Notes under the pieces: generated by a model
The model's database searches: none
What the model was told of the DNA's origin: nothing
The model's input: only the letters and a program-made list of their open reading frames with translations
In this document: positions 31,001 to 64,000 of the stretch, in pieces
Position numbering within the stretch: the first letter of the stretch is position 1
How the letters are laid out: each line of letters opens with the position of its first letter
Program-made: the position numbers and the translations under genes
Assembly: GCA_009103225.1 (NCBI GenBank)
Contig: RHPI01003753.1
Location: 61,843-125,842, forward strand
Length of the DNA stretch: 64,000 nt
From: Chlorokybus atmophyticus
Lineage: Eukaryota > Plantae > Mesostigma and Chlorokybus algae
Direction: 5' to 3'

Positions 31001-31599
31001 TGATAGCACTGTCATTGTCACCGTTGCCGGCATTAACGCTGAACTCTTCCTTCTGCTTCCCTGCGTGCCTCGCACGGTAAGCCCGCTAGTCACACCTTTG
31101 CCCTGCCTCTGCTCAGCACGCACTTGCACTTGCATTTGCGTACATATGTTAGCAGCCCCAGTAGGCTATGTGGTAGAGTTGGTGTTGAGAGATTATCATC
31201 GATATCTTCTGAGGTTGAGCATCGTCTACTATTGGATTTCGATACCATATACACACAAACCACACAAACTCGACTAGCCTAAGCTATGGGGGTTGATGCA
31301 AGCAGATCCAAGCAGTGACAGGAGTGCAATATCTGTAAACAGAATGTTACTATTGCTTGTCATACACATGTCACTTGTCGCAGTTCAACGTGACCATACC
31401 ATGGTCGTTGCTAGTGATGCATAGCACACTGTCCACGCACTTGTTTTATTGCTATAGTTCACTCACATCTAACAAGTGCGACTCTCAAGGAAATGGGCAA
31501 TAGCGTTTGTCGGTAACAGCGTTACAGCAACTTTCGCTCACAAACAACTTATTCAAGTTGGAGGGTCAAATTCAGCGATTGGGTTCCCGCTGCAGGTGA

Positions 31600-31740
31600 T
31601 CAACCTGAATTATCTTGACACAGAGGCAGGGTGCATCCTCCAAGAGCGCTGTTCTGGCGGAGAAACGTGTTGTAGACTGAGCGCGCTGCATAGTACCACA
31701 GCGGTAAGTAACACGTCAAGTTTGGAGAGTTGGGTCAACT

Positions 31741-31823
<83 letters not shown>

Positions 31824-31824
31824 N

Positions 31825-31893
<69 letters not shown>

Positions 31894-33432: not shown

Positions 33433-33463
<31 letters not shown>

Positions 33464-35587: not shown

Positions 35588-36810
35588 CTCTCTTACACTG
35601 CTGCTCAAGCAATGCTCACGCTTTGTCAGTGAAAGCTTACTCGCTGCCTCATCCATACAGGCGCACAGGCATAGGCGCACACATGCGCATGCAAACATGC
35701 ACACACGCACACAGAGCTATGCACGTACCGGCGGCGATGATGGCTGCCGTTGAAGAGGAGAAAGCCTGGACTGCACGTCACCGGCTGGCTTGCCGCTAGC
35801 AGTTGCAGCTTGCAACACTTACACTGTACGCTAGAGCCATCCCATCACACATGCGGTTGCTTACATAATTGACATCTACCGGCAAAGGGGACACGAATTG
35901 TGCTGAAAGTCTCCTGTCAACAGCTCAGTAAAGTCTCTGAAGATGCGGTATGTCATATCGTGAACATGACATGCATGTCGTACTGCCATCAGCCTGCTAA
36001 GCTGGTTGTTTCAGCCGCTAAGTTATCAAGCACTTTGGAACAACAACTAGATGTGCGTACATGCCGCTGAACTCCGCGTCCTATAGTTCAAGTTCAGCGG
36101 CATGCAGCATGTAGGCATAGTTGGTCCGCTTAAAGCGGACCAATTACCTGATGCGGAAGGGGCTGCAAATTGTAGTTGGCATGTTGGGTGCAAATTGCAG
36201 CCCAATCCGCCCGCTGCTGGTAAAGCAGCATGGAACAAAGCGCCAGCCACGCTGGTGCGTGCGCAACGCTTTGTTCCGTGCTGCTTTAACGACATGACGC
36301 TCGTGACGACCGATCACTCCGCCACATCAGCAAGCAAAGTAAATGACATTGCATCATCAGCAATTTGCAAGCTGCATGGCCCGGATGATGTGCACATGCA
36401 CATGCTACAGCGATGCCATCAACAAAAGCGGACATCATGCTACGCACAAACTAGCGGGGCGTGTGATTGGGCCGGCCGGCCGGCCGGCATTAGGGCACAA
36501 GACACATCACACGCGCACCACGCACGACGGCCGTGTGACGGCACCCGCGACTGCCGGGCTGCGCGGCCCGCCTGCCTCTCATTGGCTAGGCGGCAACAAT
36601 TAGCTATCGGCCGTTCGATCTGTTAAATCAAATCTCGACCGTCCAAAGCTCATCCCCAAGTCATGCAACTGCTCAAAATATATGCGAATGATATATACTG
36701 TATTTATGAATAACTGTATGCAATGACGACTACATATAATGATATGCATTGTAATTGATAATGTATATATATATATATGTATCATAAGTACAAACTATAC
36801 GTGATATATA

Positions 36811-42140: not shown

Positions 42141-43323
42141 GTGGCGTGCAAGGAGGCCTCGACTGCGGGGTGTGTCTCGCAGTGGGAGTGTACACCAATG
42201 TGTACAAATGTCAAGAACGAGTGAAGTTACCGGGCAGCCTACAGGAGACTAAGCAGGAGACACCGAAGCTGTAATGTAGCAGCGTGTGCGGGAGACAGTG
42301 AGGAGGAAAAATAACTGTGTAGTCCCCTTAGCTTGATAGAGAGTGGTAGTCACTCAACAAGCTCCCCCCAATTCAACAAGCTCCTGAACAAGGACGCTTG
42401 AAAAATGCACACATCGGTCACGCAATGTATGTATGCAGGGATAGCCAAGTAAGACGAGATCACACACTACAAGCACCGAGTATGCGAATGCAAGCAATCA
42501 CTGTTACAATTGAATTGTGAGTGGGGTGCAGACAAGCACTGCAGCAGTGTAGGGATGATGCAGTGTGCAGGTAGCAAATGCGATGGCCACAAGCATGAGA
42601 ACAAGAGTGTACACTTCAAGGTGTACAGGCAAAAGTAGGTCCGGGGGAAAACACTGTCTGTCGAAATAGCTGGCACGCTAGCAGCGTATATACAACTATC
42701 ACTGAACTACTGGTACCGTGGACTCTACTTCGCTGACCCTCGGGTGCTCGCCGGCTCGGAGGTGGGCCGACTGGTTAGTCTCGGGCCGTGCCACCGCCGC
42801 TTTTGCTCCGGTCCGTCTTCTTGCAACTTACTGCCGACGCTTCTGGCGGGAGTTGCCTAAGTAGGGTGTCAACGCGGCCCGCCGCCACAGGGACTGCGTT
42901 CTTGTCGGTGGAGGCCGGTGCTGGCAGTCGGCTGTCACGCGGCCTGCTGACATAAGGATTGCGTCCTGATTGGCGGGGCTGGGGGCCAGCAGTGTGGACA
43001 CGGATCGATCGATCCGCACGTTATCAGGGCAACACAGGCGGGTGATAAAGTGCGAGGGGGAAGTGCGTGTCGAGGGTCAGCACTGTGACAGCTGTCGTGA
43101 AAGGAGGTCTTGACCGCGGGGTGTGTCTCGCAGTGGGTGTGTGTACACGAAGGTGTACAAGTGTCAAGAACGAGTGAAGTTACCGAGCAGCCTGCAGGAG
43201 ACCAAGCAGAAGACACCGAAGCTGTAATGTAGCAGTGTGTGCGGGAGACACTGAGGAGGAAAAATAACTGTGTAGTCCCCTTAGCATGATAGAGAGTGGT
43301 AGCCACTCAACAAGCTTCCCCCA
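42141..43323. repeat. ~230-bp imperfect direct repeat pair (42141-42370 and 43092-43323)
   Basis: gcggggtgtgtctcgcagtggg...tcaacaagct(c/t)cccc occurs twice ~950 bp apart, roughly 85-90% identical by eye. Confidence 0.85.
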
Positions 43324-43427
43324 TGCCTGGTCATCGGCGTCCTCGCGATGAGCTTGGCACCGGTGACAACGCCATGGCAGCTCCGCGCAGGTGGTGGCAA
43401 TGTCGGGGTTGATTACAGCAGGGGTGA

Positions 43428-46400: not shown

Positions 46401-47612
46401 CACGAGGACTCCCTTACCAATCAAGTCAGCAAAAACGCTGTTCATAAGCGTTTGAAATGTTGCCGGTGCATTCGTAAGTCCGAAGGACATGACCAACCAC
46501 TCGTAGTGCCCATAACGTGTGTTGAAAGCTGTTTTCTCCACATCCTCGGGCGTGATGCGAATTTGGTGATAACCTCCAGCAAGATCAAGTGTTGTGAAGT
46601 ACTGCGCACCTTGCAATTGCTCCAGCAACTCGTCGATACGTGGGAGTGGAAAGCAATTCCTCTTCGTGATGTTGTTGAGAGCTCGGTAGTCGACGCACAT
46701 GCGCAAGCTCCCGTTCTTCTTTCGTACAAACAAAATAGGTGCACCATAGGGGGACTTACTAGGCCTGATGTAGCCTCTTTCCAGCAAGTCNCAGTGCCAA
46801 GATGGCAGCTTGAAGCTCTTCCATGCGAGCATCCTCCATCTCCACTAACACACTACACTCCGCTTCCGAATGAAAAGTGTAAACGCCCACACACTTCCTC
46901 TCTCACCTTCGTAAACCGTGCTCCGATACCAGTTGTGACGGTGCTCGTGCCTTGTCACCTGTGAGTTGGTCCAATCCACAACCCTCTCACCAAGACACGG
47001 TATTCACACCGGAACCTTGCCCCCTCTGCCAAGCACACACACGCGCCCCGCCACTCGCGTACGCACGCGCATGCGCTCGAAGCTACACACCGACTTGTGT
47101 AGCGCCTTGGATTGTCACACAAGCAAGCACACACCGGTGGGCACACGCTAGCAACCCCTGCTAACCACCACCAAGCTTGCACACAAGAAACTAGGGAGCT
47201 AAAGGTTGTATTGCAAGTTGTAGAATGATGAATGTCACTTTTATACCTACCAATCTGCACATGCTACTGTCTAGACGATTCTAGCGCTAGACGGAACTAG
47301 AAGCTAAGATACTCTTGCAGAATCTTGTAGTACACTTCTAGACCTTTCCAACGCACCAAAGATCTCCTAATTTGCTGCTCATATGGTCAAGTTATACTAC
47401 TTGGCGCCAGGCCCTTCCAGAAATCTGGTCGAGCCCTTCTCGACTGGCCCTCCGTTTTCTGGCACCTTCCGGACTGGTCTCGGGGCCCCGGTCGATATCC
47501 GCGGCAGACTCATAACTCGCCGATATCCGCCACAAGTCATTAAAAACATGTACCTTACAAATAAGGCCTAAAACGGCCATGAAAATCACAGAATTTGGCC
47601 TTGACTGTTACA
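43428..47612 (-). mobile_element. Chromovirus (Ty3/Gypsy with chromodomain), recent insertion
   Basis: LTRs 43428-44104 and 46934-47612 (TG...CA, ~99% identical: 5 substitutions and a 2-bp indel seen). 5-bp TSD GGTGA (43423-43427 / 47613-47617). PBS TGGTATCGGAGC (iMet-type) next to the 5' LTR; PPT GGGGGGGAGGAG next to the 3' LTR. Confidence 0.97.
44100..46790 (-). CDS. Chromovirus pol: RT, RNase H, integrase, chromodomain (open to stop)
   Basis: MSFGLTNAPATFQ, YLDDIL, LACDAS, HDVPIAGH..CDAC, MDFITGLP, SDRD, QTERAN, WLGPFKV, WEVEDILGEKFVHGVRKFLVKWKGYPLHEASWEPEAHL. The gag start MEDARMEELQAAILAL lies just before the N at 46791. Confidence 0.95.
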   Translation of the reverse strand, partial: DLLERGYIRPSKSPYGAPILFVRKKNGSLRMCVDYRALNNITKRNCFPLPRIDELLEQLQGAQYFTTLDLAGGYHQIRITPEDVEKTAFNTRYGHYEWLVMSFGLTNAPATFQTLMNSVFADLIGKGVLVYLDDILVYATTKEEHVALLRRVLQRLREHKLYAQLQKCKFLLREVEYLGHIVSHEGIKPDPNKVQVVREWAAPTNVKEVMSFLGLAGYYRKFIMGFSRIAAPLTALLKKGKHWSWSATEEHAFAALKKALTEAPVLAHPNMEKTFILACDASDTAVGAVLQQDHGNGLQPVAFFSKKMSGAELNYPVHEKELLAQVMALRQWRCFLEGKKFVLETDHSPLRYLQTQPHLSRRQARWLEFFQLFDFDIKYKPGTSNGVADALSRLNAIEALAQVQPEWTDQIRQVLREDTEGMKVLQELENTATDTSGHWSMRDGLLWHHGRLYIPNVAHIRVKLLKEAHDVPIAGHQGLERTLASLKQRFYWREMHRDVRDYVALCDACQRVKASNQKPGGLLQPLPVPLSKWEQVTMDFITGLPKTKEGYDAILVFVDKTSKMVRLAPCSESCTAPEAARLFVKHVFRSHGLPRSIVSDRDPRFTSKFWEALHSALGTTLKFSTAFHPQTDGQTERANRVIEDMLRCYVNARQDNWEELLELVEFAINNHHNASTGVTPFLMNYGQHPLTPLTAWTPRRHDVRVEAANDFLTKCADINKAARDALLVAQNRQKQYADAHRRHLTFQEGDIVLLSAKHVQVRTGVRKLNERWLGPFKVSKVISDVAYKLELPDTMRVHPVFHVSLLKAYRGQPPERPPPEVGTDGEPEWEVEDILGEKFVHGVRKFLVKWKGYPLHEASWEPEAHLTNAQDVVRAYLARRHPRELRGRSSPGGGGV

Positions 47613-47986
47613 GGTGACACCGAGGCTGCATGCTGAGTGCCAGCATTCCCAGCAGGTGTCACACAATTTCAGCAGCTAATGGGTGGTGGCGCACCCGGCG
47701 CATCTCATGATACGAACCCGCGGGCGAGGTTTGCCTAGTCCTTCGACGTACGGGAGATGACAGGGAAAACAATTCTCCACGTGGTTGTGAGGGTGCCTGA
47801 GGGGTCACGCAGTGACAGGGTGCCGTAAGCGCGCACCTGTGCCACCTTGTAAACCATGCCGTAGTTGGCTGGGTCCAGGGTGTTGTGTTTTGCTTTTTGC
47901 AGACGTAGTCCCCCCGGTAGAACTTGCGAGTTTGAGGCACGTAGCTGCCGCTGTGCATGTTTTCGTAACGGCGCTTGTCCCTGCGC

Positions 47987-48408
47987 TGCGCAGCCTTGAG
48001 GTTGGCCAAGGCAGAGGGTACCGCGGTCCTGAGCAGGTTGGCGCGGGTCGTCAGTACTTCCATCATGTGGGTGGGTTTATTGATGATGTCCTCAACTGCC
48101 TCTGTAGCATGGCGGATGCGGAAAGGGAGCAGTGGTTCTCTTCCGAACATGAGGAAGTATGGGCTGAAGGAGCGAAGCGCCGCCTGCCGGGTGCAACTGC
48201 GCAGCCTTGAGGTTGGCCAAGGCAGAGGGTACCGCGGTCCTGAGCAGGTTGGCGCGGGTCGTCAGTACTTCCATCATGTGGATGGGTTTATTGATGATGT
48301 CCTCAACTGCCTCTGTAGCATGGCGGATGCGAAAAGGGAGCGGTGGTTCTCTTCCAAATATGAGGAAGTATGGGCTGAAGGAGCGAAGCGCCGCCTGCCG
48401 GGTGCAAC
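47987..48408. repeat. 211-bp tandem duplication within the element 2 integrase
   Basis: 47987-48197 and 48198-48408 are near-identical; 211 is not a multiple of 3. Confidence 0.92.
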
Positions 48409-51400
48409 GGTAGCCGAGGGCAAGCCAAGGCAGGAACTCATCCCATTCCTTCTGCGGATGGGTGACGCAATGGCGCCGGAGGGCCTTCTTAACTGTCTGC
48501 ACTATTCGTTTTGCAAGCCCGTCAGCTTGAGGATGATCGCGGCTGGTGCGGCGGTGGTCAGTAGTGAACGACACTACTGCCCACCATACGCAATGCAAAG
48601 GCGAAATGCATAATAAGGGAGGGTATTCTCCCTGGAATGCAGTGCCCTGGTCGGTGACGAGTTCGGCACAGGCGCCGAACCTGCTGAGTATGTGGTCAAG
48701 GAAGACTTGAGTCACTGTTGAGGCCGACTTGTCAAGCAGGGGGATAAGTTTGACCCACTTGCTAAAGTGTTCAACGGCGACGAGGACGTATACGTTGCCA
48801 CGGCGTGTGATGGGCACTCACCTGCCAGGTCCACGCTCCAGCGGTAACCCAGACCCCGTAATGGGGAGAGGGTGCAGCTGGTGGTGGCGGTGTGAGAGGC
48901 TTGCCCGTATACGATCACAGAACTTACACTACCTAAGCACGTCAACGACGTTACGCGCGAGCCCGTCCCACCAGTAGTCGCTGCGCACCATGTTGGCAGT
49001 GCGCTTCATTCCGAAATGGCCTAGCTGGTGGTGGAGGTTGGCGATGATGCCTGTCGATGAGGCTGGGGCACCTCCATGCGCTGTCCGTCATTCATGACGC
49101 GCCAAAGGATGTCGTTGTCTCAAGTGTGGTTTTTGGCCCGATGCTGTGCGCGATCAACTGCTTTGTGGTCGAGCCCATCGGTTAAAGCTCCTGTCTTTAC
49201 CAGCTGCAGAGTGGGGGCATCTGCCCAAATGTCTCCCTCGGATGCAGGAGGTATGATGGCACGGAGCACGGGGTTGCGTGCTTCATGCGTAGGCCGGCTG
49301 CCACGATTAACATAGCTTGCTAGTGTGGAGTGTCGCCATCGTAGCGCGCGCCGGTGGTGTCCACAGTGTCGGGGTTAGGGTTGCGGCTCAAACCGTCAGC
49401 ATCGGTGTTGATGCTACCAGGTTTATGCATGATGGTGAGATCATACTCCTGCAGCAGCAAGGCCCAGCGAGCATGCTTACCAGTCAACTTGTTGATGGTA
49501 ATGAGCCACTGAAGAGGCTGATGGTTTGTTACCAGTTTAAACTGGTAACCGAAGAGCAATGCCCGGAAGAATTGAATAGCTCAGACAGCTGCAAGTTGCT
49601 CCCCTTCGTAGCTGCTGTAATTGGCTTCAGCAGCATTATTGCTCCGGCTGACATAAGCGATAACTTGTTCTTTGCCCTCATCGTTCTTTTGACACAGCAC
49701 CGCGCCTAGCCCTAGCCGGCTCCAATCTGTATGAAGGATGAAGGGCTTTCTGTTAGTTAGGGTCACCCTAACTGGCACACGGTGTGCCAGTATGGGAGCG
49801 GATTAAGGGTGGCTCTTGAGTGCCTCAAACGCTTGTTGCTCGGCTTCACCCCAATGCCAGGTGATGGCTTTCTTCAGCAGGTCATTGAGAGGCTTGGCTA
49901 TTCTTGAAAAGTTCAGCACGAACCTACGGTAGTAGTTGGCTAAACCAAGGAAGGCACGTAGCTGCGAGATGTCAGTAGGTGGTGGCACCTTCAGTAATGC
50001 GTCCACCTTTGCCCGCTGCACCATCACACGTTGGGGACGATGAGGTGGCCGAGGTAAGGGATCTTGTCGGCGAAGAAGGTGCACTTCTCAAGGTGTGCCA
50101 TGAGGTTGTGTTCCTTCAGTCGCTCCAGCACCTCTTTGATGTGCTGCAGGTGGGCCTCTGCAGTGTGGCTGAAGATGAGGATGTCATCAATATAACACCG
50201 TGAGTAATCCCGCCCGCGTAGGGTTCGGACCATAACGCGTTGGAAGACAGCTGGTGCGTTTTGCAGCCCAAACGGCATAACCTTCCACTGGTAAAGGGTC
50301 CGGTTGCCCCAGAAGGCGGTCTTGCACTTGTGGTCTGTATGCCAATCTGCTGGAAATCAGAGCGCGTTGAGGACTGAGAAATACTTGCAAGTTTCAACGC
50401 TGTCGAAGATCTCGTCTGGCGTGTACATGCCGTTGCGGTAAAGCAGCGTGCGAGTGTTGAGATTGCAGTGATCTCCACACATACGGCACTGTGTCATCTG
50501 CCCGTGCTCGTCCTTCTTCAGTGGCATGACAGTGGCCACTGCATACCGAGTGCTTGGGGCTGCCTCCTCGATGAGGCCGGCGTCCAACAGCTTCTTGCAG
50601 TTGGTTTTGATGAGCTCGGTTTCCACCTTGGCCAGGGGATGCTGCTTGCTGAAGATAGGCCCGGCGGTGACCACCTATATGGTGAAGTCGTGGAAGTTGC
50701 ACTTGTCAAAGTCTTTGAGTGAGTGCGCGAACCGCGACTTGTGACTTTCCAAGAGGGTTTTCAGCCGATCCTCCATGTCTCCACAGGCCATACAACCGAT
50801 CCTCCACCCTTCTTGCGCTGGTTCATCCGTGTGAGGGATATCCAATGCCTCCTCAAGAGCTTCAAGTTCGCTGCCTTGGACCATAAGCCATGAAAACAAA
50901 TGATGGGTCTCCGATTGCTGCGGGNNNNNNNNNNNNNNNNNNNNNNNNNNNNNNNNNNNNNNNNNNNNNNNNNNNNNNNNNNNNNNNNNNNNNNNNNNNN
51001 NNNNNNNNNNNNNNNNNNNNNNNNNNNNNNNNNNNNNNNNNNNNNNNNNNNNNNNNNNNNNNNNNNNNNNNNNNNNNNNNNNNNNNNNNNNNNNNNNNNN
51101 NNNNNNNNNNNNNNNNNNNNNNNNNNNNNNNNNNNNNCCCCCCCCCAACCACCACCACAGCGGACGGCGTAGGGCGGAGACGTGACCAGTAGCCGTGTTG
51201 CAGGGCCAAGCATGTTTCCAGTAGCCGATCCATGATATTCTGGTCCCTAGCACAGCCAAGAAGTGCGCGGCAGTCGTGCTCCTCGAGTTTGGGTGCCTGA
51301 GTGATGGCGCCTGGCCAAGAGCCCATAGCCAACTCGCGCTCCGTGACGAGTGGCTCCCGAAAGCAGTGCAGATTGTTATCCCAAACCGTGCCGATGTTGC

Positions 51401-53717
51401 CGTTGCGGAAGGAGTGAGAGCCATGGAAGGCCACAAAGGTGGGCAAGTCAGCCATTGGCTGACCCATTTTGTTGCTCTGGTGGAAGGATTTGTGGTCCGG
51501 CTTGGGCACCAGTTGCAGGGTGGTGCCAGCAGCCAGGATGTCGGTAATCGAGAGACCTAGAGAACGCACGTACAAGGGCTGCGCAGCGACCAAGTTCTGT
51601 GCGTTGGCGAGGTTGGTCAACTTGCTGCGCAAGCGATGCGCGCGTGAGCCGTGTGCGGCTGCGTCAGTGACCACTGAATCGCGGAGGACTGTACATACGC
51701 GTTCGTAGTCAGCACGAACGTTAGCGCGGTGATCATCCTTTGCACATACGTCCTTCAGCATATATGCGGGCGGACTGTTAGGTTGCTGTTGTAGGAGTGT
51801 GCGGATGACGTGGTCTGGGAATGGATGGCGGTGTTTTACCACGTGCTCCAGGGCGTGGGTTGCTGGGTGCATGCGCAGCAATCGAAACGCCTGCTGCACC
51901 GGAACGCACCCCCTCCCTTGAGGGCGAGTGCGCGGATGCCATCACAGTTTGAAAATAACTATCTACCCTATCTCTTCCCCCCCTTCCCCCCACCCCACAG
52001 CGTAGCACTGACGAATGGTGCGGGCAAAAGCGCGTACCCTTATGGTGTGCCGTAATCCTTTTCGGAAGCACGTGGGTGGCAACGCAGGAGGGTGGCGGTG
52101 TAAGGGACAGGGCTGGCTGTGAGGGGATACCAGTATGAAGTGCGAGTTCCTTCGGAGGCGCAGAATGATAGCAACAGGTGTGCCATCGCCCTGGCGCCAG
52201 CGTGGACGAAAGATGGCGTATTCTGTCCATGTATCGACGGCTGCTCTAATGGGGTGTTTCCATGCCGATGAGGACATCAAACATCTCTGAATTGGAGATG
52301 AGACAGAAGACGTTCAGGATGGTAGTTTCATCCTGTTGATAGCCAGTAAAACGCAGAGATATGCGTTTGCGGGTTTCACCTAGGGTGTTTTCGAGCGCGC
52401 CCAGGGCGGTGTGAATCTCGTGTGACGTCACGTTGAGATCGTGGTCGTTGATGCTCAAGTTCCGCTGCACGTTTTCTAAAGATGACGGGTTGCGCGCCTG
52501 TGTCAAACAAGACGTGACGTGGAACTCAAGGGTGGTCGGCGAAGGTGATGTGCCCTCGCTGGTTGTTGACCATGCTAATGTTGGGTCAATACTAAAGCCT
52601 GTTCCGCGTGCGGGGTGGCCTGTAGAGGTTCGTTAGCAAAGGGAAGGGCATGCCATCCCAGTTGGGGTCGGCAGCAATGTCTTCCAGCAGCGCGACGGAT
52701 ATAGTCCGTCAGCTGTGTACGCCGCCGGGTGATGGTGGTGAACGTGGTGCAGGAGAGGAGGTGCTGGGTTGATTGGGCCCAGGCGCATCAGCACGTGAGA
52801 TGTATTGGGTGGCGGCCTCCATTGCCAGTGGGAGTGCTTCCGCAGTGATAGCGCGTTCCCAGTGATGTTGGCGACGGTATCCGCACGTGGTGACTGGCAA
52901 GATGGGCAACAGCCTGACATAGGCGATTATGAGAGCGGTGTCAGCGTTGGATAGAGGGGTGGGGTATACACATATTGCGCAGTGTGTCTGCCGGTGCTCC
53001 TGTGTCTTCGAGAAGCTGTCCTTCTACCAATTGGCGAAGGTCCCTGGTCTCTTCATCGTCCACATGGTGCTGCGTGGCTCGGTGAAGCTGCTGGTCATCG
53101 CGTTGGTTCTCCCAATGGAAGAGCCTAAACTCATTTGAGAGGTGTTGCTCAGTGGCACCAGTTCGCTGGTGGGCCATCATAGTAGGATCCTAATAATGCG
53201 CGGCCCGGGTGAGCAGGCGTGGCATCTTGACAGTGACCAGGTCCTCGATCCATGCTTCGGGGCTGATGAACAGCCGTGGATCCATGGAGTGGCTGCGATT
53301 GGCCAGCCATAGCATGAGGTCCCTCAGTTCACTTTTGAGGATGCTGCGGCCCAGTGGTGCCAGGTCGTTCCAGGGTCCCTCTCGGCGAAGCAGTCGTCCC
53401 TGAAGCCTTTGCAGGCGGGAACGCACCTCCATGAGAAGTTGTCCGGTCTGCACGGGAATTGTACTCCAGAATGGTGGGGGCAGAGAGGCAGGTGCGAGTT
53501 GCCTGGAACGCCTTTTTTGGTTGAGACGGTGTGGGCTGGGGTTGCTCGACCCTTTGCGTGGGTATCCCATGCGAGGAGTGAGCGTACCGAGCAGGGTGTC
53601 CTATTGCGTGCGCTCCTGCGGGTCGCGAGGGGCGGCGCCTTGGAGCACAAATGGGTTTGACGAAACAGCCACAGTTGACGCCGGATTCGACGTTTTTGCT
53701 GTGCCCAGGTGATTGCT

Positions 53718-54534
53718 TATCATGCCATCTACCCTCGCATGCCAGTCCTTCTCGAGCAGGCCTACACCCAGCCCCATGCCCGGGCTACCGGCATGAAGAC
53801 CGCGCGAGCCCCAGCCTACTGCTAGCTACTGTATCACTCATGTAGCATGTAGCTAGGGCTACTTTATAGACCTGTCTGTAGGGACCGCGCGTAGCTGATC
53901 AGTTGTAAGTCTGTTAAAGACACATGTGCTATATCGAGTCTTATGAGATTTCCGAAATAGCATGAGGCCTCGATGTGACCGTTGGCCTAGTGCCGGCGTG
54001 GCACTGCACGGTCATGATTTAACATGTATAAGTAGAAAGTCACGTCACCAGACTGGCTGGTGACACTGTAAGTGAGTACTGTGAGTACTAGGAGTACTAA
54101 GAAGTAAAGACTCTGTTTCTAAAGAGCTTGTGAAGCGATTCTATCTGGAAGCACGCTGCCCCAGTTGCCAAGAATTCCCTTACTGCGTGAGACACGGTGC
54201 ATGCTCTTGTGCGCTGTGCCTGTCATTGCTGTGAGCTTGTCGGTGGTGTGTTGTTTCAGTAGTCAGGGTGTTGTATCCACGTGTTGCACACTCATTCACC
54301 TCACTTAACAGTGTATCATTCTATCCGCTCATGCAAAAAACTTTGTCTACAGCACTACCTATCGTAGTGGCTTGTTGACTTACAGTGTCACCCTCTTTGC
54401 ACAAGTGAGTGTGTTGCAATCTGCATCAGATAGTGCAGTCTGCACCCAGGGATACATCGCTGGGCATTCGTTATCATTGTCATCACATAGTGCGCACAAG
54501 CACTAGTGTGTTGGGTGGTAACAGCATCATGATA
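53718..54534 (+). repeat. Putative 5' LTR of element 1 (right boundary tentative)
   Basis: Begins TATCATG and the proposed end is CATGATA (7-bp inverted termini). TATAAG at 54027-54032. Only 36 bp of the partner LTR are inside the window. Confidence 0.55.
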
Positions 54535-54581
54535 GACGGTAGAGCACAAGCACTCTACCCTTTCACCTCTGGACCAGCTGT

Positions 54582-56868
54582 ATGAGCAGGCCCACCCCGT
54601 TCTCCCCAATAGACGAGGGTGACCTCAGCAGTTGGAGCCCAACCACCAACCTCACCTACGAGCGGACCAGTGACGGGAGCATCGACCGCAGCAGCAGAGG
54701 CTCGCGCTCCATCTCCAGCTTCACCCCGCTCCACTCTACTCCTCGTCATCAAGCTTCTCCACTATCATCGGACAGCGACGACAACGAGATGGAGTCTTCC
54801 AGTTCAACCACATCCCTGCGCTTCTCCGGACGTGCCGGCACCACCTCGCTGGATGAGTTCATCATCAAGTTCCACTCCAAGATGCGGCAGCAAGCACCGA
54901 AGAACAAAGACTGGTCAGATGAGATTTCTTTCCACATTGCTGCTCAGTATCTTGATCATGAAGCACACGATGTCTGGAAGTCCGTTGCTGAACTGCATCG
55001 AGTAGACGGCTATGGCGAGCTTGCCAACACCATAGCATCTGCATCCCTGCACCGTCCAGCAGGTGTCGTTCCACCTGCCACTTCAGTTGCAGTAACAGGC
55101 TTGACCATAGCTGCAGCTCTCAAGCAGGCAGAGGAGGAGGAACCAGAGTTGGTACTTGTCAACTTGACCCCTGCAGAAGTTGAGTCCAAGGAGGCCACAC
55201 GTCGAGTCCGCATCCTTGACCGTTCTGCCGCTATCATTGAGGAACAAAGAGCTGTACAGCAAGCGGCAGCCGCAGAGTGGGGTACTCCTCTACCTCCAGC
55301 AACACCTGGCTCTCGTGCATGAGGCAGCGCTTTCACCCTCGGGTCAGTAGCACTGCGCGCACCAGCCATCACCGTAGGTGCTGCCATCTCTGAGTCTCCA
55401 CTTAAGGACCTGTACGCTGCCCTGCGCCGTACCTTCCCTCCTCAGACCACCAGCAAGGTTGAGGAGCTGAGACGCTTCCGACGCAAGCCCAGTGAGGATC
55501 CCCTCCGCTTGTACTCCAGACTTGAAGGTCTGTTGAAGGACACTGACTACAAGATTGTCAGTGAGGAGGCTGCTGCAGTGATATACGTCAATGAGTTGGA
55601 TGCTGCTCTGAGCGAGTCGACACGCCTGACTCTGAACTACAGCAGGCCCCTTGGCTACACCCTCAAAGAAGCCTTCGAGACTGCACAAGCCATCCACAAG
55701 CGCTTGGTGTATGAGAAGGCAGTGCTGGACACCAACCGCAGCGCCGTACGACCTGTAGTCAGCACGACAACTGAGCCTCCTCGCCGCGACCGTGGCCGGG
55801 ACGCTCCACCAGCACGCAACAAAGGGAAACGGTCAGCTCATGCTGCACTTGCTGCCACTGTGCTGTGTCATCGCTGTGGACGGCATGGGCACTACCAAAA
55901 GGAGTGCACCGAAGAATACTCAACTTTGGTTTGCGACCACTGTCACAAGACTGGTCATTTGGAGTCAGTCTGCTGGCTCAAGTTCCCAGAGTTGAGGCCC
56001 GCCAACAGCTACAACCACAACTACCTCGGTGGCTACAACAGCAACAACACTGGGGGCCACACTGGCAACAACTTCAGTGGCTACAACAGCAACAACACTG
56101 GGGGCCACACTGGCAACCACTTCAGTGGCTACAATAGCAACATCACTGGGGCCCACTGGAGCCCACAACAGCAACAACGCTGGTGGCAATAACAACAACA
56201 ACAACGCCAGTGTTTGCAAGGAAGAGCAAGGCTACAAGGGGAAGAACAGACCTCCTCAGCGTAAGGGACCAGAGACACGTCCGCGCGCTGCTGCTGTTGC
56301 CGCTAAGGCTTCAGCCAACCCACCAGCTGAGGACCATATGGCAGCCCTCATGGCGCGTATGGCGCGCTTGGAGGAAGACAAGGAGCAGGACTACCGCGCC
56401 TGCTACGCTGCCCGATGGGCGCTGATGGCTGCAAAACGCGAGAGAGACAGGAACACTCCGTCCCGCGTGCAACCATCACGACGAGCACGAGGAGAAGCTG
56501 CAACAACATCAGCAGGCACCTCCTCCGAAGCCACCAGTGGTGCTGCCTCCGCAGCAACAGCCACACCGGCTACAACGTCAACTCCACCAACGTCAGCAGC
56601 ACCCACTCCAGTTGCACCACAACCTGGTACACCGATGGGCACCGTGACGCCGACGCTGGTGAGCACACTGGCAGCAGCCGCCATCTCTACCGAATCTGCA
56701 CTTGTGGGTGGTGCACTTCCCATTGCAGCAGTGCCTCTGTCCGTAGGCGTTGAGACAACTCTCGCACCACCGACCGATACCGTCGCAACTGCCACAATGG
56801 CCATTGTCGAGCCCGCTGTCTCTGCAGCGACGCGCGCAGCCACTCTGCCCGCTCTCGACGTCACTTAG
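54582..56868 (+). pseudogene. Element 1 gag with two zinc knuckles, interrupted by TGA 55320-55322 and a frameshift near 56155
   Basis: LRFSGRAG..LDEFIIKF; LRRFRRKPSEDPLRLYSRL (capsid-like); CHRCGRHGHYQKEC and CDHCHKTGHLESVC (CX2CX4HX4C). Confidence 0.85.
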
Positions 56869-57042
56869 GCTGTCCCAACTGGTCAGCAAGCTGAGCGAGC
56901 ATGGGAAACCATCCTGCGCGGAGCAGACCCCACTACCATCGCCTTCGGTCGGGGGGGGGAGCGCACCACGCGTGTCACTCGCGATGATCGCGTCTTCCCG
57001 CTAGCAGAGGTTCACACCCTTTCAGCACTCAGTTAACACCAG

Positions 57043-59148
57043 TTGGAAGATGAGATCCTTGCTGGCACTGCACCTCCGATGCGTGACAGGGTGTTTTTGA
57101 TCAGCTACAGCCCACCTGTAGTGTTGGAGTTGGCTCTGCAGCTATTCTGGGCGTTGCACAACAGCATGCAGACCGCCCCGCGCCAGCCTGCACGCATGCC
57201 AACCACCACCTTTGAACCCAGCCCGTTGGACACGTATCGGGACCGCCGAGACGCCGTCCAGCAGCGCATCGCCGACGCAGCCGACCTGCCTTTGGGCACT
57301 GATGAAGCACTCGGACCTCCTGAACCCGCTCGTCTTCATCAGCGCTACCACGCACTGGAACAAGCATATTATTGGCGACAGGATCAAGCTGCCGCCATTG
57401 CTGCACGTGAACAAGCTCTTGAAGCTACACGTGCACCAATACCGCAGTCACCAGCTGCTGGTCCATCCTCCAGCACCACTCCTCTCTTCGTCGAGACCAA
57501 CTCTGATCAAGCGAGGGCGTTGGCTCAACAAGCCAGGGGGGTGATCGCCCCGTTGCTGCCTGCGCTGGTGGAGGATCTACCTGAGGACCAAAGGGAGCCA
57601 GGGAGGGGCTACCTTACACCACAAGGGTGTACACAAAGGGATGGAGCAGGATTGGTTGGAGAGCAACAACTATGCACTGCTCTGTTGCGACAAGCAACCA
57701 TGCTGCATCGGCAAGAAGGCATCGGACTTCGGCAGATGCTTGGGATGCGAGACAATGGCAACGCGGCACGCGCACGGTTAGTGACGTGGCTGGTCACCAA
57801 CCATCCCGCAGTCCCGTTGTTCGCTTTCGGCGCCAGAATAGCGTGGGTGGACCCATTCCTTCGCTCCATACGGCAAGCCTATGATGAAGTGGCTTCCGCC
57901 GCCACTGGCACTCTGGAGGGAGCTCTGGAGGCGATACTGAGTTTGCCAGGAGTGGAGGCAGGACGTCAGCGCAGGCGCATCGCCGCTGCTTGCGAGCAGC
58001 ATGTCCAACAGCCAGAGACCCGCCTCACTGTACGCACACGAGCAATAACAGTGCTGGAAGTGGGAGTGGTCAACGGCAGATGGGATGCTTACATGGTAGG
58101 GATCCTCAGGGTGCCTACCGTCACTCACAACATGAGGGCGCGGCTCCTACGCGCAGTGTACCTGCAGCTCATGCCTCAGAACCATCGCTATATACACGTG
58201 GACAACAATGCGACGGCGACATGGGAAGGTACACTAGTCAGAGAGGCAGCCCATGCTGTGCGATGGACCTATGCAGAGAAGCAGGCTGCACGAGAGGCAG
58301 TCCCGCAAACACCAGGTCCTCCAGGGTTCCCGCCACAGCCACTGGCCACTCCTCCTGGCATGACAACAGCTGCACAGAGGGTCAACCCTCCTGCACCTCC
58401 ACTTGGACAGGTTGCAGCAGCACCTCCAGTGCCTAGGCCACCACGCGTGTACCAGCAACCGCGACAAGGACGGTTTGGACAAAGCCGAGGACAAGGAGGC
58501 CCACAAGATCCATCAGGCAGAGGAGCCCTGGCTGCCCTACGGTCAGGCCCCGCAGATGAGAGTAAAGCAACAGTCTCTCCACGCAAGAGGTTCCGTCGCT
58601 GCAAGAGGCTGCGCATCAACGCAAATGCAGCCATGATCGCCAACCAAGGCAAGCACATGACCGTCAATGGGCGGGCACCCAAACGCGTGATGCTGGACAC
58701 TGGAGCACAGCCTGTCATCATTGGGCGCTATCTCGCACGAGATCTCGGCATCACCAGCGCTGAGCTGCTTCCCTGTCCCTACCAGCTGGACACCGCAACC
58801 GGCAACCGCGACAAGGTGCTTGGCCTTACCAAGCAGGCTGTGAGCATTCGCCTCACAGGACCAAACCCTTCCCACAGCACCGAGATTGTACAACGGTGTG
58901 TGGTCACCGATGCCGGGTCTTTTGACCTACTGCTGGGACAGGACTGCAACTTCCCTGTCGGCATGGGGATGGACTGCTGGACTGAGCAGGCATGGTTTCG
59001 ACCGCATTGGGATGAGGACGATGGAGAGGAGCAGGGATTCCTACCTCTCGAACTGGTGGCCAAGGACTGCTCGCAACGAAGATCGGCTGCAGCAGCCACT
59101 TACAGTCTTACAAAAGCTCACGTGTGCCTCGTGCCCGAACGCAGCTGA
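57043..59148 (+). CDS. Element 1 uncharacterised domain plus retropepsin-type aspartic protease
   Basis: 701-aa open frame, in frame with the upstream gag tail across TAG 56866 and TAA 57034. VMLDTGAQPVIIG (DTG ~58696) and FDLLLGQD. Confidence 0.85.
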   Translation: MEDEILAGTAPPMRDRVFLISYSPPVVLELALQLFWALHNSMQTAPRQPARMPTTTFEPSPLDTYRDRRDAVQQRIADAADLPLGTDEALGPPEPARLHQRYHALEQAYYWRQDQAAAIAAREQALEATRAPIPQSPAAGPSSSTTPLFVETNSDQARALAQQARGVIAPLLPALVEDLPEDQREPGRGYLTPQGCTQRDGAGLVGEQQLCTALLRQATMLHRQEGIGLRQMLGMRDNGNAARARLVTWLVTNHPAVPLFAFGARIAWVDPFLRSIRQAYDEVASAATGTLEGALEAILSLPGVEAGRQRRRIAAACEQHVQQPETRLTVRTRAITVLEVGVVNGRWDAYMVGILRVPTVTHNMRARLLRAVYLQLMPQNHRYIHVDNNATATWEGTLVREAAHAVRWTYAEKQAAREAVPQTPGPPGFPPQPLATPPGMTTAAQRVNPPAPPLGQVAAAPPVPRPPRVYQQPRQGRFGQSRGQGGPQDPSGRGALAALRSGPADESKATVSPRKRFRRCKRLRINANAAMIANQGKHMTVNGRAPKRVMLDTGAQPVIIGRYLARDLGITSAELLPCPYQLDTATGNRDKVLGLTKQAVSIRLTGPNPSHSTEIVQRCVVTDAGSFDLLLGQDCNFPVGMGMDCWTEQAWFRPHWDEDDGEEQGFLPLELVAKDCSQRRSAAAATYSLTKAHVCLVPERS

Positions 59149-59420: not shown

Positions 59421-60345
59421 ATCACCGTGCTGGAGCTGTTCGGAGGCATAGGCAGTGGGCTTGCGGCTGTCCTCAACACAGGAACAACAGTCACCAAGTA
59501 CCTCTACTGTGACCCTGACCCTCATGCACAGGAGGCTCTGAGCCATCATTTACGACAGCTGCACCAGCGCTACCCGCAGCTACCGCTGTCGGCACTGCGA
59601 GGGAGCCAGAAGGCTCTACCGCGGGACATCCGCTGGATTACCAAGGATCACCTGCAGGCAGTCGGCAACGTTGACCTGCTGATAGCAGGATGGGAGTGTC
59701 AAGGGCACTCCAGGGCAGGCAGAGGCCAAGGGCTCTCTGATCCTCGCTCACAGCTGATCTGGGAGCTAATGAGAGTCATCAAACTCCTACAGACCAGTCA
59801 AATCGCTAGGCCCTTGGGGTACATTATCGAGAATGTGCACTCCGAGGATGACAAGCGGCATTACGTCGCTAAGGCCTATCGACAAGTATGCTCCTTGCTA
59901 GGGCATCCTCTCAAAATCAACGCCGCGCGTCATGGATCTCGCGCACACCGCGTCCGCGCCAAGTGGACCAACCTGGCCATTGTGGAGGACCTGTTTCTGG
60001 CAGAATACCTATACAGCAATCGGCCACGAAATCTCGTCGTCGATGACATCCTGGACCCTGGACGCACAGCGCAACCGGTCACACGCCGTGACCGCCACCA
60101 CTTCTAGTGCAACCAGCCTGGTCAGCCGCGCCGCGCACTACCCACGCTTGTATCCTATCCAGGCTCCTACGCGTTCCGCAATGGAGGCGACGGCATGGTG
60201 TTGGACTCCAACACTGGACAGCTGGAAGAACCCAATGCCCGCGAGCACGAGCGTGCTATGGGATTCTTTCCAGGCAACATCACAGGCTCCACGCTGACAA
60301 CCAGTCAACAGTGTCAGTTGTTAGGGCGCGCCATGGATCAGAACA
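59421..60345 (+). CDS. Element 1 DNMT3-like C5 cytosine methyltransferase domain (one in-frame TAG at 60105-60107)
   Basis: Motif I VLELFGGIG, IV LLIAGWECQGHS (Cys 59697-59699), VI YIIENV, VIII AHRVRAKWTNL, IX EHERAMGF, X LLGRAM. Confidence 0.9.
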
Positions 60346-63300
60346 GCATGGTGTGGTACTTGGAAATGTGCTTTGCGCTCCAGGACCGCCATGTGTCCTT
60401 CCAAGAGCTCGAACACCTGGCTGGGGGGTGGATTGATCGCTTTTCAGAGACCCAAGCAGCACACACCGCCCTCGAGACCGCCCACATGGAGGAGCAGGCA
60501 GCAGTCACTGTGGAAGACATTCCAGTGGTCGCCAACGCTACCTCGTGGTCCCACGCCATTGGACCGCTGGCCACAGGCCAGACTCGAGAGCAACTCGAGG
60601 CTCTCCTCAACAAGTGGAGGAGCCAATTCAGCTTTAGCGTGAAGGAGCTGGGCATCTGCTCAGCATACCAGATGGACATTGAACCAGTGGACATCGAACC
60701 GGTGTTCAGAAGACAATACCGCCTCTCCAAGCTAGAAGAAGACTTGGTGGAACAGAGGTACAAGGCGCTGCTAGATGCAGGCCTGATCGAGGAGTCCACA
60801 TCGGACTTTGCGGCCGCGACCGTCATGCCCCTGAAGAAAGTTTCAGCAGGCAATTGGACAGACCGGCGTATGTGTGGCGACTATCGCCCCCTCAACAACA
60901 AGACCAAGCAGGACAGGTATCCAATGCCTACCGCAGAAGGCATCTTTGACGATGTAGGAGAATGCACGGTCTTTAGTATCTTGGATATGCGCCAAGGGTA
61001 CAACCAGATCGCCATCAAGGAGGAGGACAAGCACAAGACTTCCTTTTGGGGAAACCGGCAGCTGTACCAGTGGAAGGTCATGCCCTTCGGGCTGAAGAAC
61101 GCTCCGGCCAAGTTTCAGCGCGCCATGGACAAAGCCCTCAAGGGGTTGGACTTCGCACGCTGCTACATCGATGACATCCTCATCTTCAGTCACAGCAATG
61201 AGGAGCATCTCCAGCACATCGAAGAGGTGCTACAGAGGCTGAAGGAAGTCGGGATGACGGTGCACCCTGACAAGTGCACCTTCTTCACCCACAAGGTACC
61301 CTACCTAGGACACATGATTGTGCCCCATGGTGTGTACGTACAGCAGGCCAAAGTGGAGGCACTGGTGGCTATCCCTGCCCCCACAGACCTCACGCGGCTG
61401 CGGGCCTTCCTCGGCCTTGCCAACTATTACCGCCGGTTTGTCAAGGACTTTGCCAAGATCGCAAGGCCTCTCAACGAACTACTGAAGAAGGACACCGAGT
61501 TCTTGTGGAAGGAGGCACAACAGGAGGCCTTTCAGGAGCTGAAGCTCCGCCTCACCACAGCTCCCATTCTGCAACGCTCTGACTACACCAGGTCGTTCAT
61601 CCTGCACACAGACTGGAGCAAGCTCGGCATGGGGGCCGTGCTCGTACAGCATGACAACAACAAGAAGGAGCGCGTAGTGTCGTACGCCAGCCGCAGCAAC
61701 AACAGTGCTGAGGCCAACTACAGCAGCTACGAAGGGGAGTGTCTCGCCGCAGTGTGGGCCATCTCCTTCTTCCGACCCTTCCTATTTGGACGGCAGTTCC
61801 AATTGGTCACTGACCAACCCCTCAAGTGGCTAATGAACAACCAGCACTTGACAGGAAAGTTAGCACGATGGGCGCTGCTGCTCCAGGAGTACGACTTCGA
61901 GGTGGAACACCGCGCAGGCCTTGCCAACCAGGATGCGGATGGCCTCAGCCGTAACCCCCACCTCAGCACCAACGACGCCACAGGCGCCCGACATGAGTTG
62001 GGTCCTACAGCTGCACCTTCAGGTGTGGCCACCATGTTCGCTGTCGCTGCGCTACGCTCAGGACGCAGGACTCAGATCGCTGAGGCAGCAGCAGACGGGG
62101 ACATGCCCGCTCTTGAGCCCGCCATCACCACCACCGATCCTTTATCAGAAGAAGCAATCGCTGCCGACCCTGAGGTGGATGATGAGGAGCTGGCACCCAC
62201 CGACACACGACAAGACATCTGGCTGGACGAGCCATCCCTCGCACTGCTTCAGACTGGACAACTTCCAGCAGGCATGAGCGCACGCGAGAAGGACCGCGTC
62301 CGACAACGCACTCAGCGTTACCGCTGGGCTAACGACAGGCTGTATCGACGGATACAAGATGCAGATCAGGAGGTCCCCACACCAGCTGCACGTGAAGACA
62401 TCATCTCCTCCCTTCACACCGAGCTCGGGCACTTCGGTGTCAAGCGCACGGTCAGCCTGGTCAGGACCCAGTACTGGTGGTATGGGGTGCACAGACAGGT
62501 GCGGGAGTTCGTCAGCAACTGTCAGCAGTGTGACATGGTTCGCGCCAGCCTCAACACGCGCAATGCCACCTTGCATCCCCTTCCCATTTCCGGGTTGTTC
62601 TACCGCTGGGGACTGGACATCCTCGGAGACCTAGCGCCCTCAGCGCGAGGCAACCGCTACATCCTCGTCATGATCGAGCACTTCTCCAAGTGGGTGGAGC
62701 TGGTGCCCCTGCCCGACAAGAGCAGTGAGGGAGTAGCTCAGGCTTTCCACTCCCATGCACTCGGACGTTTCGGCAGCTGCGCTGAAGTCATCACCGACCA
62801 GGGTACGGAGTTCAGAGGAGCCTTCGACAAGCTTATCTACAGATGCTTCAACGACCACCGTCGCACCTCACGCGACCACCCGCAGGCCGACGGCCTCGCC
62901 GAGCGTACCGTGCAGATCATCAAGAAGGCACTGCGCAAGTACGTCCTTGCCTACGAGAAGAATACCTGGGATGATCACCTCCCATGGGTAGCAATGGGCT
63001 ACCGGCTGTCCAAGCAGGCAGCCCTGCGAGAGTACAGCCCATACTATCTACTGTTCGGAAGGCAGCCATTGCTCCCTTTCCGCGCACAGCAGGAGGTCGA
63101 CAGAGTGGTGGACAATCTCGACAACCCCGACGAGATGTTGTATAATCTGACAGTGCGCAGTGCGCTGTTCGAGCACACAGTCCCCATGGCCTTCAACAAC
63201 CTGCGCATCGCGCAGCACCGCGACACGCTGCGTTACGAGCGTGTGCGCAGTGGTTTCTACAAGGAGCGGGAGCGCCGCTTCGAGTCAGGAGACTTCGTCT

Positions 63301-63677
63301 ACCGTATGGCGTCTACACGCGACACCCTCGATACCTCCGTCGGGCGTGCTGTCTACAAGGTATTGAAGGTGCACCCCACAGGGGTACTGGACCTGTTGGG
63401 ACAACGAGGCGAGCGCATGAAGGACAACATGGTCAACTGTGCGCCCTGTCATCTCCCCTACATTGCTGGCTTCACCAAGATCCAGCACCCGCGTCCGCTG
63501 CGCAGCACCCGATGCGAGAAGTGTGGCAGCGCCGACGACGACCCATTGATGATGTTATGCGACGGCTGTAATCAAGGCATGCACTGCTACTGCCTTGACC
63601 CTCCACTGGACGCAGTACCCTTGTGGGAGTACTGGTGCGATGACTGCCGCATCAACGGTCCCCCACACAGTCGGTAG
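60195..63677 (+). CDS. Element 1 MTase C-terminus fused to RT, RNase H, integrase and a C-terminal PHD finger (1160 aa open)
   Basis: MPFGLKNAPAKFQ, CYIDDIL, LHTDWS, NYSSYEGE, TDQPL..DGLSR, HTELGH..CQQC, LDILG, TDQGTEF, LAERTV, CEKC..LCDGC..HCYC..WCDDC. Confidence 0.96.
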   Translation: MVLDSNTGQLEEPNAREHERAMGFFPGNITGSTLTTSQQCQLLGRAMDQNSMVWYLEMCFALQDRHVSFQELEHLAGGWIDRFSETQAAHTALETAHMEEQAAVTVEDIPVVANATSWSHAIGPLATGQTREQLEALLNKWRSQFSFSVKELGICSAYQMDIEPVDIEPVFRRQYRLSKLEEDLVEQRYKALLDAGLIEESTSDFAAATVMPLKKVSAGNWTDRRMCGDYRPLNNKTKQDRYPMPTAEGIFDDVGECTVFSILDMRQGYNQIAIKEEDKHKTSFWGNRQLYQWKVMPFGLKNAPAKFQRAMDKALKGLDFARCYIDDILIFSHSNEEHLQHIEEVLQRLKEVGMTVHPDKCTFFTHKVPYLGHMIVPHGVYVQQAKVEALVAIPAPTDLTRLRAFLGLANYYRRFVKDFAKIARPLNELLKKDTEFLWKEAQQEAFQELKLRLTTAPILQRSDYTRSFILHTDWSKLGMGAVLVQHDNNKKERVVSYASRSNNSAEANYSSYEGECLAAVWAISFFRPFLFGRQFQLVTDQPLKWLMNNQHLTGKLARWALLLQEYDFEVEHRAGLANQDADGLSRNPHLSTNDATGARHELGPTAAPSGVATMFAVAALRSGRRTQIAEAAADGDMPALEPAITTTDPLSEEAIAADPEVDDEELAPTDTRQDIWLDEPSLALLQTGQLPAGMSAREKDRVRQRTQRYRWANDRLYRRIQDADQEVPTPAAREDIISSLHTELGHFGVKRTVSLVRTQYWWYGVHRQVREFVSNCQQCDMVRASLNTRNATLHPLPISGLFYRWGLDILGDLAPSARGNRYILVMIEHFSKWVELVPLPDKSSEGVAQAFHSHALGRFGSCAEVITDQGTEFRGAFDKLIYRCFNDHRRTSRDHPQADGLAERTVQIIKKALRKYVLAYEKNTWDDHLPWVAMGYRLSKQAALREYSPYYLLFGRQPLLPFRAQQEVDRVVDNLDNPDEMLYNLTVRSALFEHTVPMAFNNLRIAQHRDTLRYERVRSGFYKERERRFESGDFVYRMASTRDTLDTSVGRAVYKVLKVHPTGVLDLLGQRGERMKDNMVNCAPCHLPYIAGFTKIQHPRPLRSTRCEKCGSADDDPLMMLCDGCNQGMHCYCLDPPLDAVPLWEYWCDDCRINGPPHSR

Positions 63678-64000
63678 GAACTGAGTTCTGGAGCAGAGGG
63701 ATGCCCCAGAATCTCAGGGGGGGTGGCTTGTTGACTGTGTGCACTACAACACAGTCTGTACACAAAGGTGGCAAGCGGCATCGGCTCGTCCACTGCACTG
63801 AACACCGCGTGGGCTCATCTTCAAGCCTATGCCCACGATTGGGGGGTTGTCTTTTGCTTGCATGACTCCGATGCAATGCACGGCACTAGCATGCGTGCAG
63901 CACTAGCACTCCTCCGCAGCCTGTCCGAGACAAGGTTGCCCTCGACCATGACAGGCACGACAGCTGTCATGCCATCTACCCTCGCATGCCAGTCCTTCTC

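Follow-up and report, generated by a model that had tools for sequence, protein, structure and literature searches.

In 2018 a Gypsy retrotransposon of Klebsormidium nitens, KnitGypsy-Dnmt3, was described with a DNMT3 in its pol, DIRS-like repeats and a Ka/Ks under 0.2 (PMC5890265). The Klebsormidium DNMT domain did not methylate DNA in yeast, a result which the text of that paper calls inconclusive, and the K. nitens methylome is said there to be plant-like, with no visible reshaping. According to the same text, retrotransposon DNMT3s from Symbiodinium (SymbioDIRS-Dnmt3) do methylate CG in yeast, cDNA methylation is proposed by the authors, and methylation of RNA is suggested for SymbioLINE-Dnmt. 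Where later papers take up Gypsy-DNMT3, their text cites it as a streptophyte or charophyte system only (bioRxiv 10.64898/2026.05.21.726589; PMC12344493), the second of them naming Copia, unlike the 2018 text, which speaks of Gypsy. The text of the former treats the capture of methyltransferases by EpiLTRs and DAM-LTRs as distinct from the streptophyte Gypsy-DNMT3.

We analysed a stretch of 64,000 nucleotides from Chlorokybus atmophyticus (contig RHPI01003753.1), hereafter the window, in which an earlier note had placed an LTR retrotransposon carrying its own methyltransferase, from a family that might not be known. As to novelty, this expectation did not hold: judged by its sequence, the window element belongs with the KnitGypsy-Dnmt3 kind and has a direct homologue in K. 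nitens, GAQ93235.1, where a protease is followed by a DNMT with 36% identity over 330 columns to the window domain (E 2e-54). We infer that GAQ93235.1 is one of the copies described in PMC5890265. That the element is of this kind, and that the copy in the window is dead, we regard as practically certain.

A DNMT3-like domain in the pol of a Gypsy element

At 59421..60345 of the forward strand, on which the whole element lies, we observed a DNMT3-like C5 cytosine methyltransferase domain, recognized by Pfam, by structure matches and by motif reading, with motifs I to X in linear order. The complete motif series reported in the earlier note is indeed present, and chance is ruled out as its origin: motif I ELFGGIG (59433-59453), motif IV GWECQ (59688-59702, with the Cys at 59697-59699), motif VI ENV (59829-59837), motif VIII AHRVR (59943-59957), motif IX E-H-E (60243-60251, where the usual Arg is His in this copy) and motif X LLGRAMD (60318-60338). 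The Pfam profile PF00145, which the note had proposed to run, matches the domain with 41 bits (cut-off 22, E 2e-10). Among solved structures, DNMT3A is the top sequence match (E 7e-7), and DNMT3A, DNMT3C and DNMT3B outrank M.HaeIII and M.HhaI in the 41 matches with E up to 0.01. An AlphaFold2 model based on a 38-row alignment (pLDDT 86.7, pTM 0.88) has the Rossmann-type C5-methyltransferase fold, and in a Foldseek search with this model DNMT3A was again best (E 2e-16, TM 0.63/0.80), all 35 listed rows being DNMT3 entries. Among C5 methyltransferases, DNMT3 is the nearest to the domain by sequence and predicted fold; this affinity is that of the PDB sequence and fold matches, the DNMT trees given below comprising element-borne domains only.

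The domain stands between protease and reverse transcriptase (RT), as the earlier note had it. Upstream, a gag region with stops and a frame break (54543..56868; PF00098 E 6e-4, just below the cut-off) resembles the N-termini of the polyproteins P0003 and P0007 and includes a CCHC zinc knuckle (55866-55913), after which 24-base tandem repeats occur at 56004-56202. The next open reading frame, 57037..59148, encodes an aspartic protease (58657-58944, LDTGA; PF13650 E 1e-7). Downstream of the methyltransferase follow a Ty3/Gypsy RT with YIDD (60867-61319; PF00078 E 4e-34), an RNase H (61506-61892; PF17917 E 8e-33) and a DDE integrase with an H2C2 zinc finger (62382..63080, right limit approximate; PF17921 E 5e-16, PF00665 E 7e-8), in which the D, D and E motifs could be read. 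A PHD finger, absent from the account in the earlier note and present in most relatives, closes pol (63513..63647, stop at 63675-63677; PF00628 E 1e-6). The order protease, RT, RNase H, DDE integrase is that of Ty3/Gypsy elements, and the DNMT3-related domain lies without introns in the pol frame: after a single TAG this frame is open to 63677, so that the methyltransferase shares it with RT, RNase H and integrase, in agreement with the note. The methyltransferase is an integral pol domain of a Ty3/Gypsy element.

The window copy is dead. The TAG (60105..60107) falls between motifs VIII and IX, a frame break at 59111..59112 puts the protease in a different frame from the DNMT, gag contains stops, and four conserved residues of the domain are altered (D257N, R366H in motif IX, T377I and R387Q, in the numbering of P0001), each of them kept in 65-70 of 71 aligned relatives. 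Sibling contigs from the sequencing runs X1-X3, which represent at most two samples and whose depth is not a copy number, revealed many variants of the element with insertions or deletions relative to the window at 59111 and 60105. At the frame break, X1 and X2 contigs differ by one base; at the TAG, X2 and X3 contigs are three bases longer, which indicates a loss of three bases and not a point change. With this origin of the TAG, and with further damage besides it, the window copy is a poor test subject. The family itself is not dead: in P0003, P0007 and P0191, where protease and DNMT share one open reading frame, unlike in the window copy, gag, protease, DNMT, RT, RNase H and integrase form a single open frame.

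A second Gypsy-DNMT3 element, divergent from the first and in a more advanced state of decay, lies on the reverse strand of the window (47613..53717, with RT, RNase H and integrase). Its protease lies at 52576-52258 and the C-terminal half of its DNMT, 43% identical to the first, at 51809-51207. Its 3' repeats (42142..43325) comprise B1 (43325-43093), a junction (43099-43086), A2 and B2 (42370-42142), B2 being 91% identical to B1. In its PHD region sits a Gypsy element of the chromovirus type (43428-47612, reverse strand), which encodes RT, RNase H, integrase, SH3 and chromodomain in one frame of 914 residues, without DNMT. The LTRs of this chromovirus are ordinary (TG..CA, 98-99% identical), it is flanked by a 5-bp duplication, and an assembly gap at 46791 hides its gag region. 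Host genes occupy 4800-21200: a GDP-mannose epimerase (reverse strand, one exon at 4804-5337), a BTB/BACK protein (reverse), nucleoprotein TPR (forward) and a tRNA ligase with an HGTP anticodon domain (forward), which by likeness we take to be of the proline type. Over 124 residues, the epimerase exon has 100% identity to a protein labelled jgi/Chlat1, a label that stands for Chlorokybus atmophyticus, with the following matches at 77-85%. At 26000-36000, some 5 kb with exons for NIDO (nidogen-like) domains and simple repeats are duplicated in tandem.

Split repeats and a palindromic junction

The earlier description of the locus as an LTR retrotransposon was right as to a retrotransposon; in place of two LTRs, the element has split direct repeats. 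Its left end is repeat A1 (53718..54380), which begins with TA where the second copy has TG and whose positions 53720-53753 are identical to 63967-64000. On the right, a polypurine tract (63716-63723) is followed by repeat B1, a block of 240 bases with CA at its end, the two together spanning 63716..63962. A 14-base word at 63723-63736 recurs at the end of A1 (54367-54380). After B1, repeat A2 starts and runs to the window end (63965..64000); the rest of A2, and B2, would fall past it. In the sibling contigs, whose cover starts at A1 with nothing in the bins to its left, a B end stands before 53720 in one contig and a B start after 54380 in others, the latter being an A-to-B joint. The layout A-coding-B-A-B, in place of an ordinary LTR pair with one complete LTR at each end, is thus found in the window element, sibling contigs and relatives. 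The succession B1-A2-B2 was read directly in the second window element and in the loci L029 and L087. L029 and L022, both of them complete, terminate in TG..CA and are flanked by target duplications of 4 bp; the window copy has its right end outside the window and TA at its left.

Two other classifications were considered and rejected. That the element is a normal LTR retrotransposon whose 5' LTR has been truncated is contradicted by the A-to-B joints of the sibling contigs and by the split repeats of complete relatives with target duplications. Ngaro/PAT-type tyrosine-recombinase retrotransposons have split direct repeats, and the window copy with its siblings shows such DIRS-like repeats (B2 of the window copy itself lying outside). 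However, no tyrosine recombinase was found in the six open reading frames of the window that we scanned; the element has an rve integrase and an aspartic protease instead, which excludes the DIRS class.

The joint between B1 and A2 is a palindromic sequence, CACGACA-GC-TGTCA (63956..63969), which we consider a candidate integrase attachment site. The identical 14 bases stand at the corresponding place in the second window element, with 0.0005 expected by chance. We then scanned elements with an integrase or PHD match: the CA-GC-TG palindrome, within GACAGCTGTC, stands at the B|A junction in 12 of 20, while two (L016 and L017, whose left ends are not readable) end in CA right after B and six have less than 450 bases past the last domain. 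The pattern is absent (0 matches) from 503,177 bases of control loci. The 12 include loci L088 and L089, in which the DNMT precedes the integrase (layout B, see below; L089 is cut by a contig end), and L084 and L085, where the junction is present and no DNMT was found in the available stretch. L085:405-4630 reads RT, RNase H, integrase and PHD, without DNMT in the interval between RNase H and integrase and with 404 bases covered upstream of RT; it is possibly a DNMT-free member of the family. In L088:9900-12900 and L089:8450-9500, a long additional coding-looking stretch extends from the PHD finger to the junction. Loci L084-L089 and protein P0111 are algal or plant retroelements in prokaryotic genome bins, one of them annotated as a bacterial DNA cytosine methyltransferase; contamination is likely.

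These observations suggest a route of integration. Reverse transcription primed at the polypurine tract before B would yield B+A blocks, whose ends would become joined into an A|B joint. The DDE integrase would then likely nick each strand of the CA-GC-TG palindrome behind its CA, and the resulting insertion would have the layout A-coding-B-A-B, TG..CA ends and a 4-bp duplication. Two-base overhangs are typical of processed retroviral ends. The junction is a candidate for integrase use because nicks after CA would leave two-base overhangs like those. The integrase likely uses the B|A junction in joined or over-extended cDNA; that integration passes specifically through the palindrome of a joined intermediate is close to an even question, which we place slightly on the doubtful side. 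Copies with A-B-A-coding-B, which a symmetric circle should also produce, were not seen in our small sample.

Range, layouts and history of the family

Among 4809 candidate polyproteins (829-2641 residues, scored with the DNMT part), 75 carry the DNMT domain, and 74 of 2460 shorter proteins (194-620 residues) matched. A profile search gave 556 clusters (50% identity) at E up to 1e-30, of which the best 150 were inspected. Thirty proteins were looked up individually, and among them we found streptophyte members in Closterium, Klebsormidium nitens, Mesostigma viride and the liverwort Calypogeia fissa, and chlorophyte members in Chlamydomonas eustigma, Haematococcus lacustris and Tetradesmus deserticola.

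The domain occupies two positions. In layout A the order is protease, DNMT, RT, RNase H, integrase, with or without PHD (window, Closterium, Klebsormidium and Calypogeia; in the latter two, protease followed by DNMT was read). In layout B, that of all named chlorophytes, it is RT, RNase H, DNMT, integrase, PHD. Among 76 rows, 17 (window included) are A, 57 are B and two have no call; for 125 further representatives the numbers are 12, 68 and 45. The Mesostigma proteins, in which we saw no second domain, group with A in the DNMT tree. The metagenome loci read as A in 31 of 36 cases, five being without call, and do not reflect layout frequencies, as the scan pattern ends in a Gly typical of layout A; 17 of 53 such loci (L037-L053), with weak partial matches, are excluded from all counts. 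One scan of viral contigs pointed to no viral donor: of 56 pattern matches 30 passed, each of them a partial match to the motif I-VI region (in most cases at 29-42% identity), and none was a family member. P0071 (1412 residues) combines a PCIF1_WW-like domain, a family-related PF00145 DNMT on a long branch of the DNMT tree and an RNase H (PF00075); from its domains it looks like a different retroelement, maybe DIRS-like, with two methyltransferase-type domains.

A single branch with an SH-aLRT of 100 parts A from B in the tree of RT and RNase H (43 rows), a quick tree rooted on one long chromovirus branch from which the older layout is not inferable. The same branch has a support of 100 in the DNMT tree (52 rows) and of 82 in a 213-row FastTree. 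RT and DNMT distances are correlated (Mantel rho 0.75 for 40 elements, 0.66 within 32 B elements; none of 999 permutations as high), and of the 23 RT splits with support, 15 are found again in the DNMT tree. Read most simply, this reflects a single capture, a long co-inheritance and one move within pol; two captures of DNMT, or horizontal transfer, could also have produced this pattern.

We also compared copies for selection. Among 19 single-frame copies of the domain (18 loci and the window), five are stop-free. In four stop-free pairs, which are relatives and not Chlorokybus copies, dN/dS is 0.10-0.20 (dS 0.15-1.5); the remaining 15 listed pairs, where at least one copy bears a stop, give 0.37-0.66, which counts against the explanation proposed below. 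These ratios point to purifying selection on the DNMT in stop-free relatives.

The same data bear on whether a retrocopied DNMT3 of the host, or an independent mobile gene, could have landed in the window copy alone. Sibling contigs span the domain and its neighbours without interruption, and the divergent second window element has a DNMT at the same position. Of the outcomes that the earlier note had named as refuting (no PF00145 match, a separate insertion, family copies lacking the domain at this position), none was seen. The domain is in frame in dozens of divergent elements, the RT and DNMT trees are congruent and selection is purifying. With nothing in its favour, we consider such a lone insertion refuted, its probability being practically nil.

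A wider reading would hold that the Gypsy-DNMT3 lineage predates the split between chlorophytes and streptophytes and has kept its captured DNMT3 since, with a single relocation in pol, an integration from joined cDNA opened at the palindrome, and pre-methylated split-repeat copies that LTR-finding programs have missed. The DNMT would then stand after the protease in streptophytes and before the integrase in chlorophytes, and the integration route would be new for DDE retroelements. We advance this reading tentatively and consider it rather unlikely as it stands.

Proposed role and comparison with known systems

Taken as a whole, the locus is probably best explained as the dead copy of a split-repeat Gypsy-DNMT3 element whose working copies would methylate their own new cDNA. 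As in Ty3/Gypsy elements generally, gag-pol would be cut by the protease of the element; the DNMT, packaged in the particle with RT, as the earlier note also supposed, and with integrase, would be the first to meet the cDNA, and the new insertion would arrive pre-methylated, in CG context by analogy with SymbioDIRS-Dnmt3. The PHD finger on the integrase would likely help to choose chromatin. Catalytic methylation of cDNA by the family enzyme seems to us a little better than an even bet. The domain is not generally required, since the DNMT-free chromovirus has transposed in the same genome.

The catalytic residues are well preserved: among 71 aligned relatives, the motif IV Cys is kept in 70, the motif VI Glu in all, the motif VIII Arg residues in 69 and 68 and the motif IX Glu residues in 68 and 70, and the SAM-binding FGG is nearly invariant across highly divergent elements. 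The residue before the motif IV Cys is Glu (ECQ) in 54 and Pro (PCQ) in 46 of 109 readable cases (149 proteins), and it switches at least 12 times in the 213-row FastTree. The ECQ pointed out by the earlier note as a departure is present in the window copy without being unusual; judged by the relatives, it is a normal state of the family, which led us to reject it as a sign of a dead enzyme. Nonetheless, a Glu in about half of the family, in place of the motif IV Pro of other C5 methyltransferases, may weigh against activity. Together with the switching and the inactivity of the Klebsormidium domain in yeast, as given in the text of PMC5890265, it would suit a domain kept for DNA binding or base flipping (as a cDNA shield, in shaping the junction or in blocking the host methyltransferase), with little or no methyl transfer. 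We give this a small chance, as near invariance of Cys, Glu, Arg and FGG among such divergent elements is unexpected for a dead enzyme.

We also looked for CG depletion as a sign of self-methylation, and found none in the window element relative to the host DNA of the window (observed/expected 0.70 and 0.71, respectively; 0.91 in the DNMT-free chromovirus), which weighs against cDNA methylation. It is in line with a DNMT that would act after nuclear entry, either on the chromatin of the insertion site and its surroundings, tethered with integrase and PHD finger, or on other copies, and not on cDNA in the particle. The PHD finger of most relatives fits such an activity, as does layout B, in which the DNMT directly precedes the integrase (57 of 76 rows) and might stay fused to it. 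In layout A, however, RT and RNase H part the two, and the methylome of K. nitens as reported in the text of PMC5890265 is not visibly reshaped, so that we judge action on chromatin improbable, although less so than a non-catalytic role. Packaging with the genomic RNA, and the suggestion made for SymbioLINE-Dnmt in the same text, would be compatible with methylation of element RNA or of an RNA:DNA hybrid in place of double-stranded DNA. Nevertheless, the nearest matches in sequence and predicted fold are to DNMT3, which acts on DNA, and not to DNMT2, and the DIRS-borne DNMT3s methylate DNA (PMC5890265); an RNA substrate is very improbable. Methylation of new cDNA in the particle remains our preferred reading.

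A transposon equipped with the silencing enzyme of its host gives direct access to the question of why a mobile element would methylate itself. In the text of the 2018 paper the Gypsy case was one host without activity; here it is a large family (556 clusters). With stop-free members, two layouts and two states of the catalytic loop, activity, sequence context and role can be compared across the family, and such tests could include chlorophytes amenable to culture and transformation. The conserved B|A junction offers a defined substrate for studying how split-repeat ends are produced by a DDE integrase. Where a survey accepts elements only if a pair of LTRs, TG..CA and a duplication are present (see the text of PMC6317226), split-repeat Gypsy-DNMT3 elements would likely be missed.

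Of the known systems, mammalian DNMT3A/B/C (PDB 2qrv, 8te1, 6f57) share the fold and motif order of the window domain, at about 20% identity; unlike them, the family has no PWWP or ADD and reads GWECQ or GWPCQ in motif IV, versus GSPCN. EpiLTRs and DAM-LTRs also combine, in an LTR-type element, a DNA methyltransferase with a domain that reads chromatin; theirs is DNMT4-related and comes with an adenine methyltransferase and a chromodomain (text of bioRxiv 10.64898/2026.05.21.726589). Ngaro/PAT-type elements, whose split direct repeats are named in the text of PMC8557442, share this feature and differ from the family by its DDE integrase, TG..CA ends and 4-bp target duplications. SymbioDIRS-Dnmt3 has, like the family, a DNMT3 in pol with RT, A-coding-B-A-B repeats and purifying selection; it is of the DIRS class, with a tyrosine recombinase in place of a DDE integrase, and CG activity was seen for it alone (text of PMC5890265).

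KnitGypsy-Dnmt3 is the closest: a Gypsy pol, an unrearranged intronless DNMT3-related domain and DIRS-like split repeats (Fig. 4c legend, PMC5890265), and in our DNMT tree the branch between A and B does not separate the K. nitens protein from the window element. The window element differs by its host, which belongs to the Chlorokybophyceae (Streptophyta), by ECQ versus PCQ in the K. nitens protein and by being dead. The text of PMC5890265, whose figures may show some of these points, mentions no PHD finger, junction palindrome, target duplications, chlorophyte or land-plant relatives or second layout; that of PMC8557442, PMC6317226 and PMC6453930 adds nothing further on the family, and in the text of the REXdb paper (PMC6317226) neither 'methyltransferase' nor 'homeodomain' occurs. 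Within the open-licence literature, a scope that leaves aside subscription journals, Repbase and theses, Gypsy-DNMT3 in Chlorokybus, chlorophytes or land plants and the split-repeat Gypsy ends with their junction are unreported. Within that scope, what goes beyond published work is the relatives in Mesostigma, Closterium, a liverwort and chlorophytes, layout B, the dN/dS values and the conserved junction; the added value lies in the breadth of the family, its second layout and a testable model of the attachment site.
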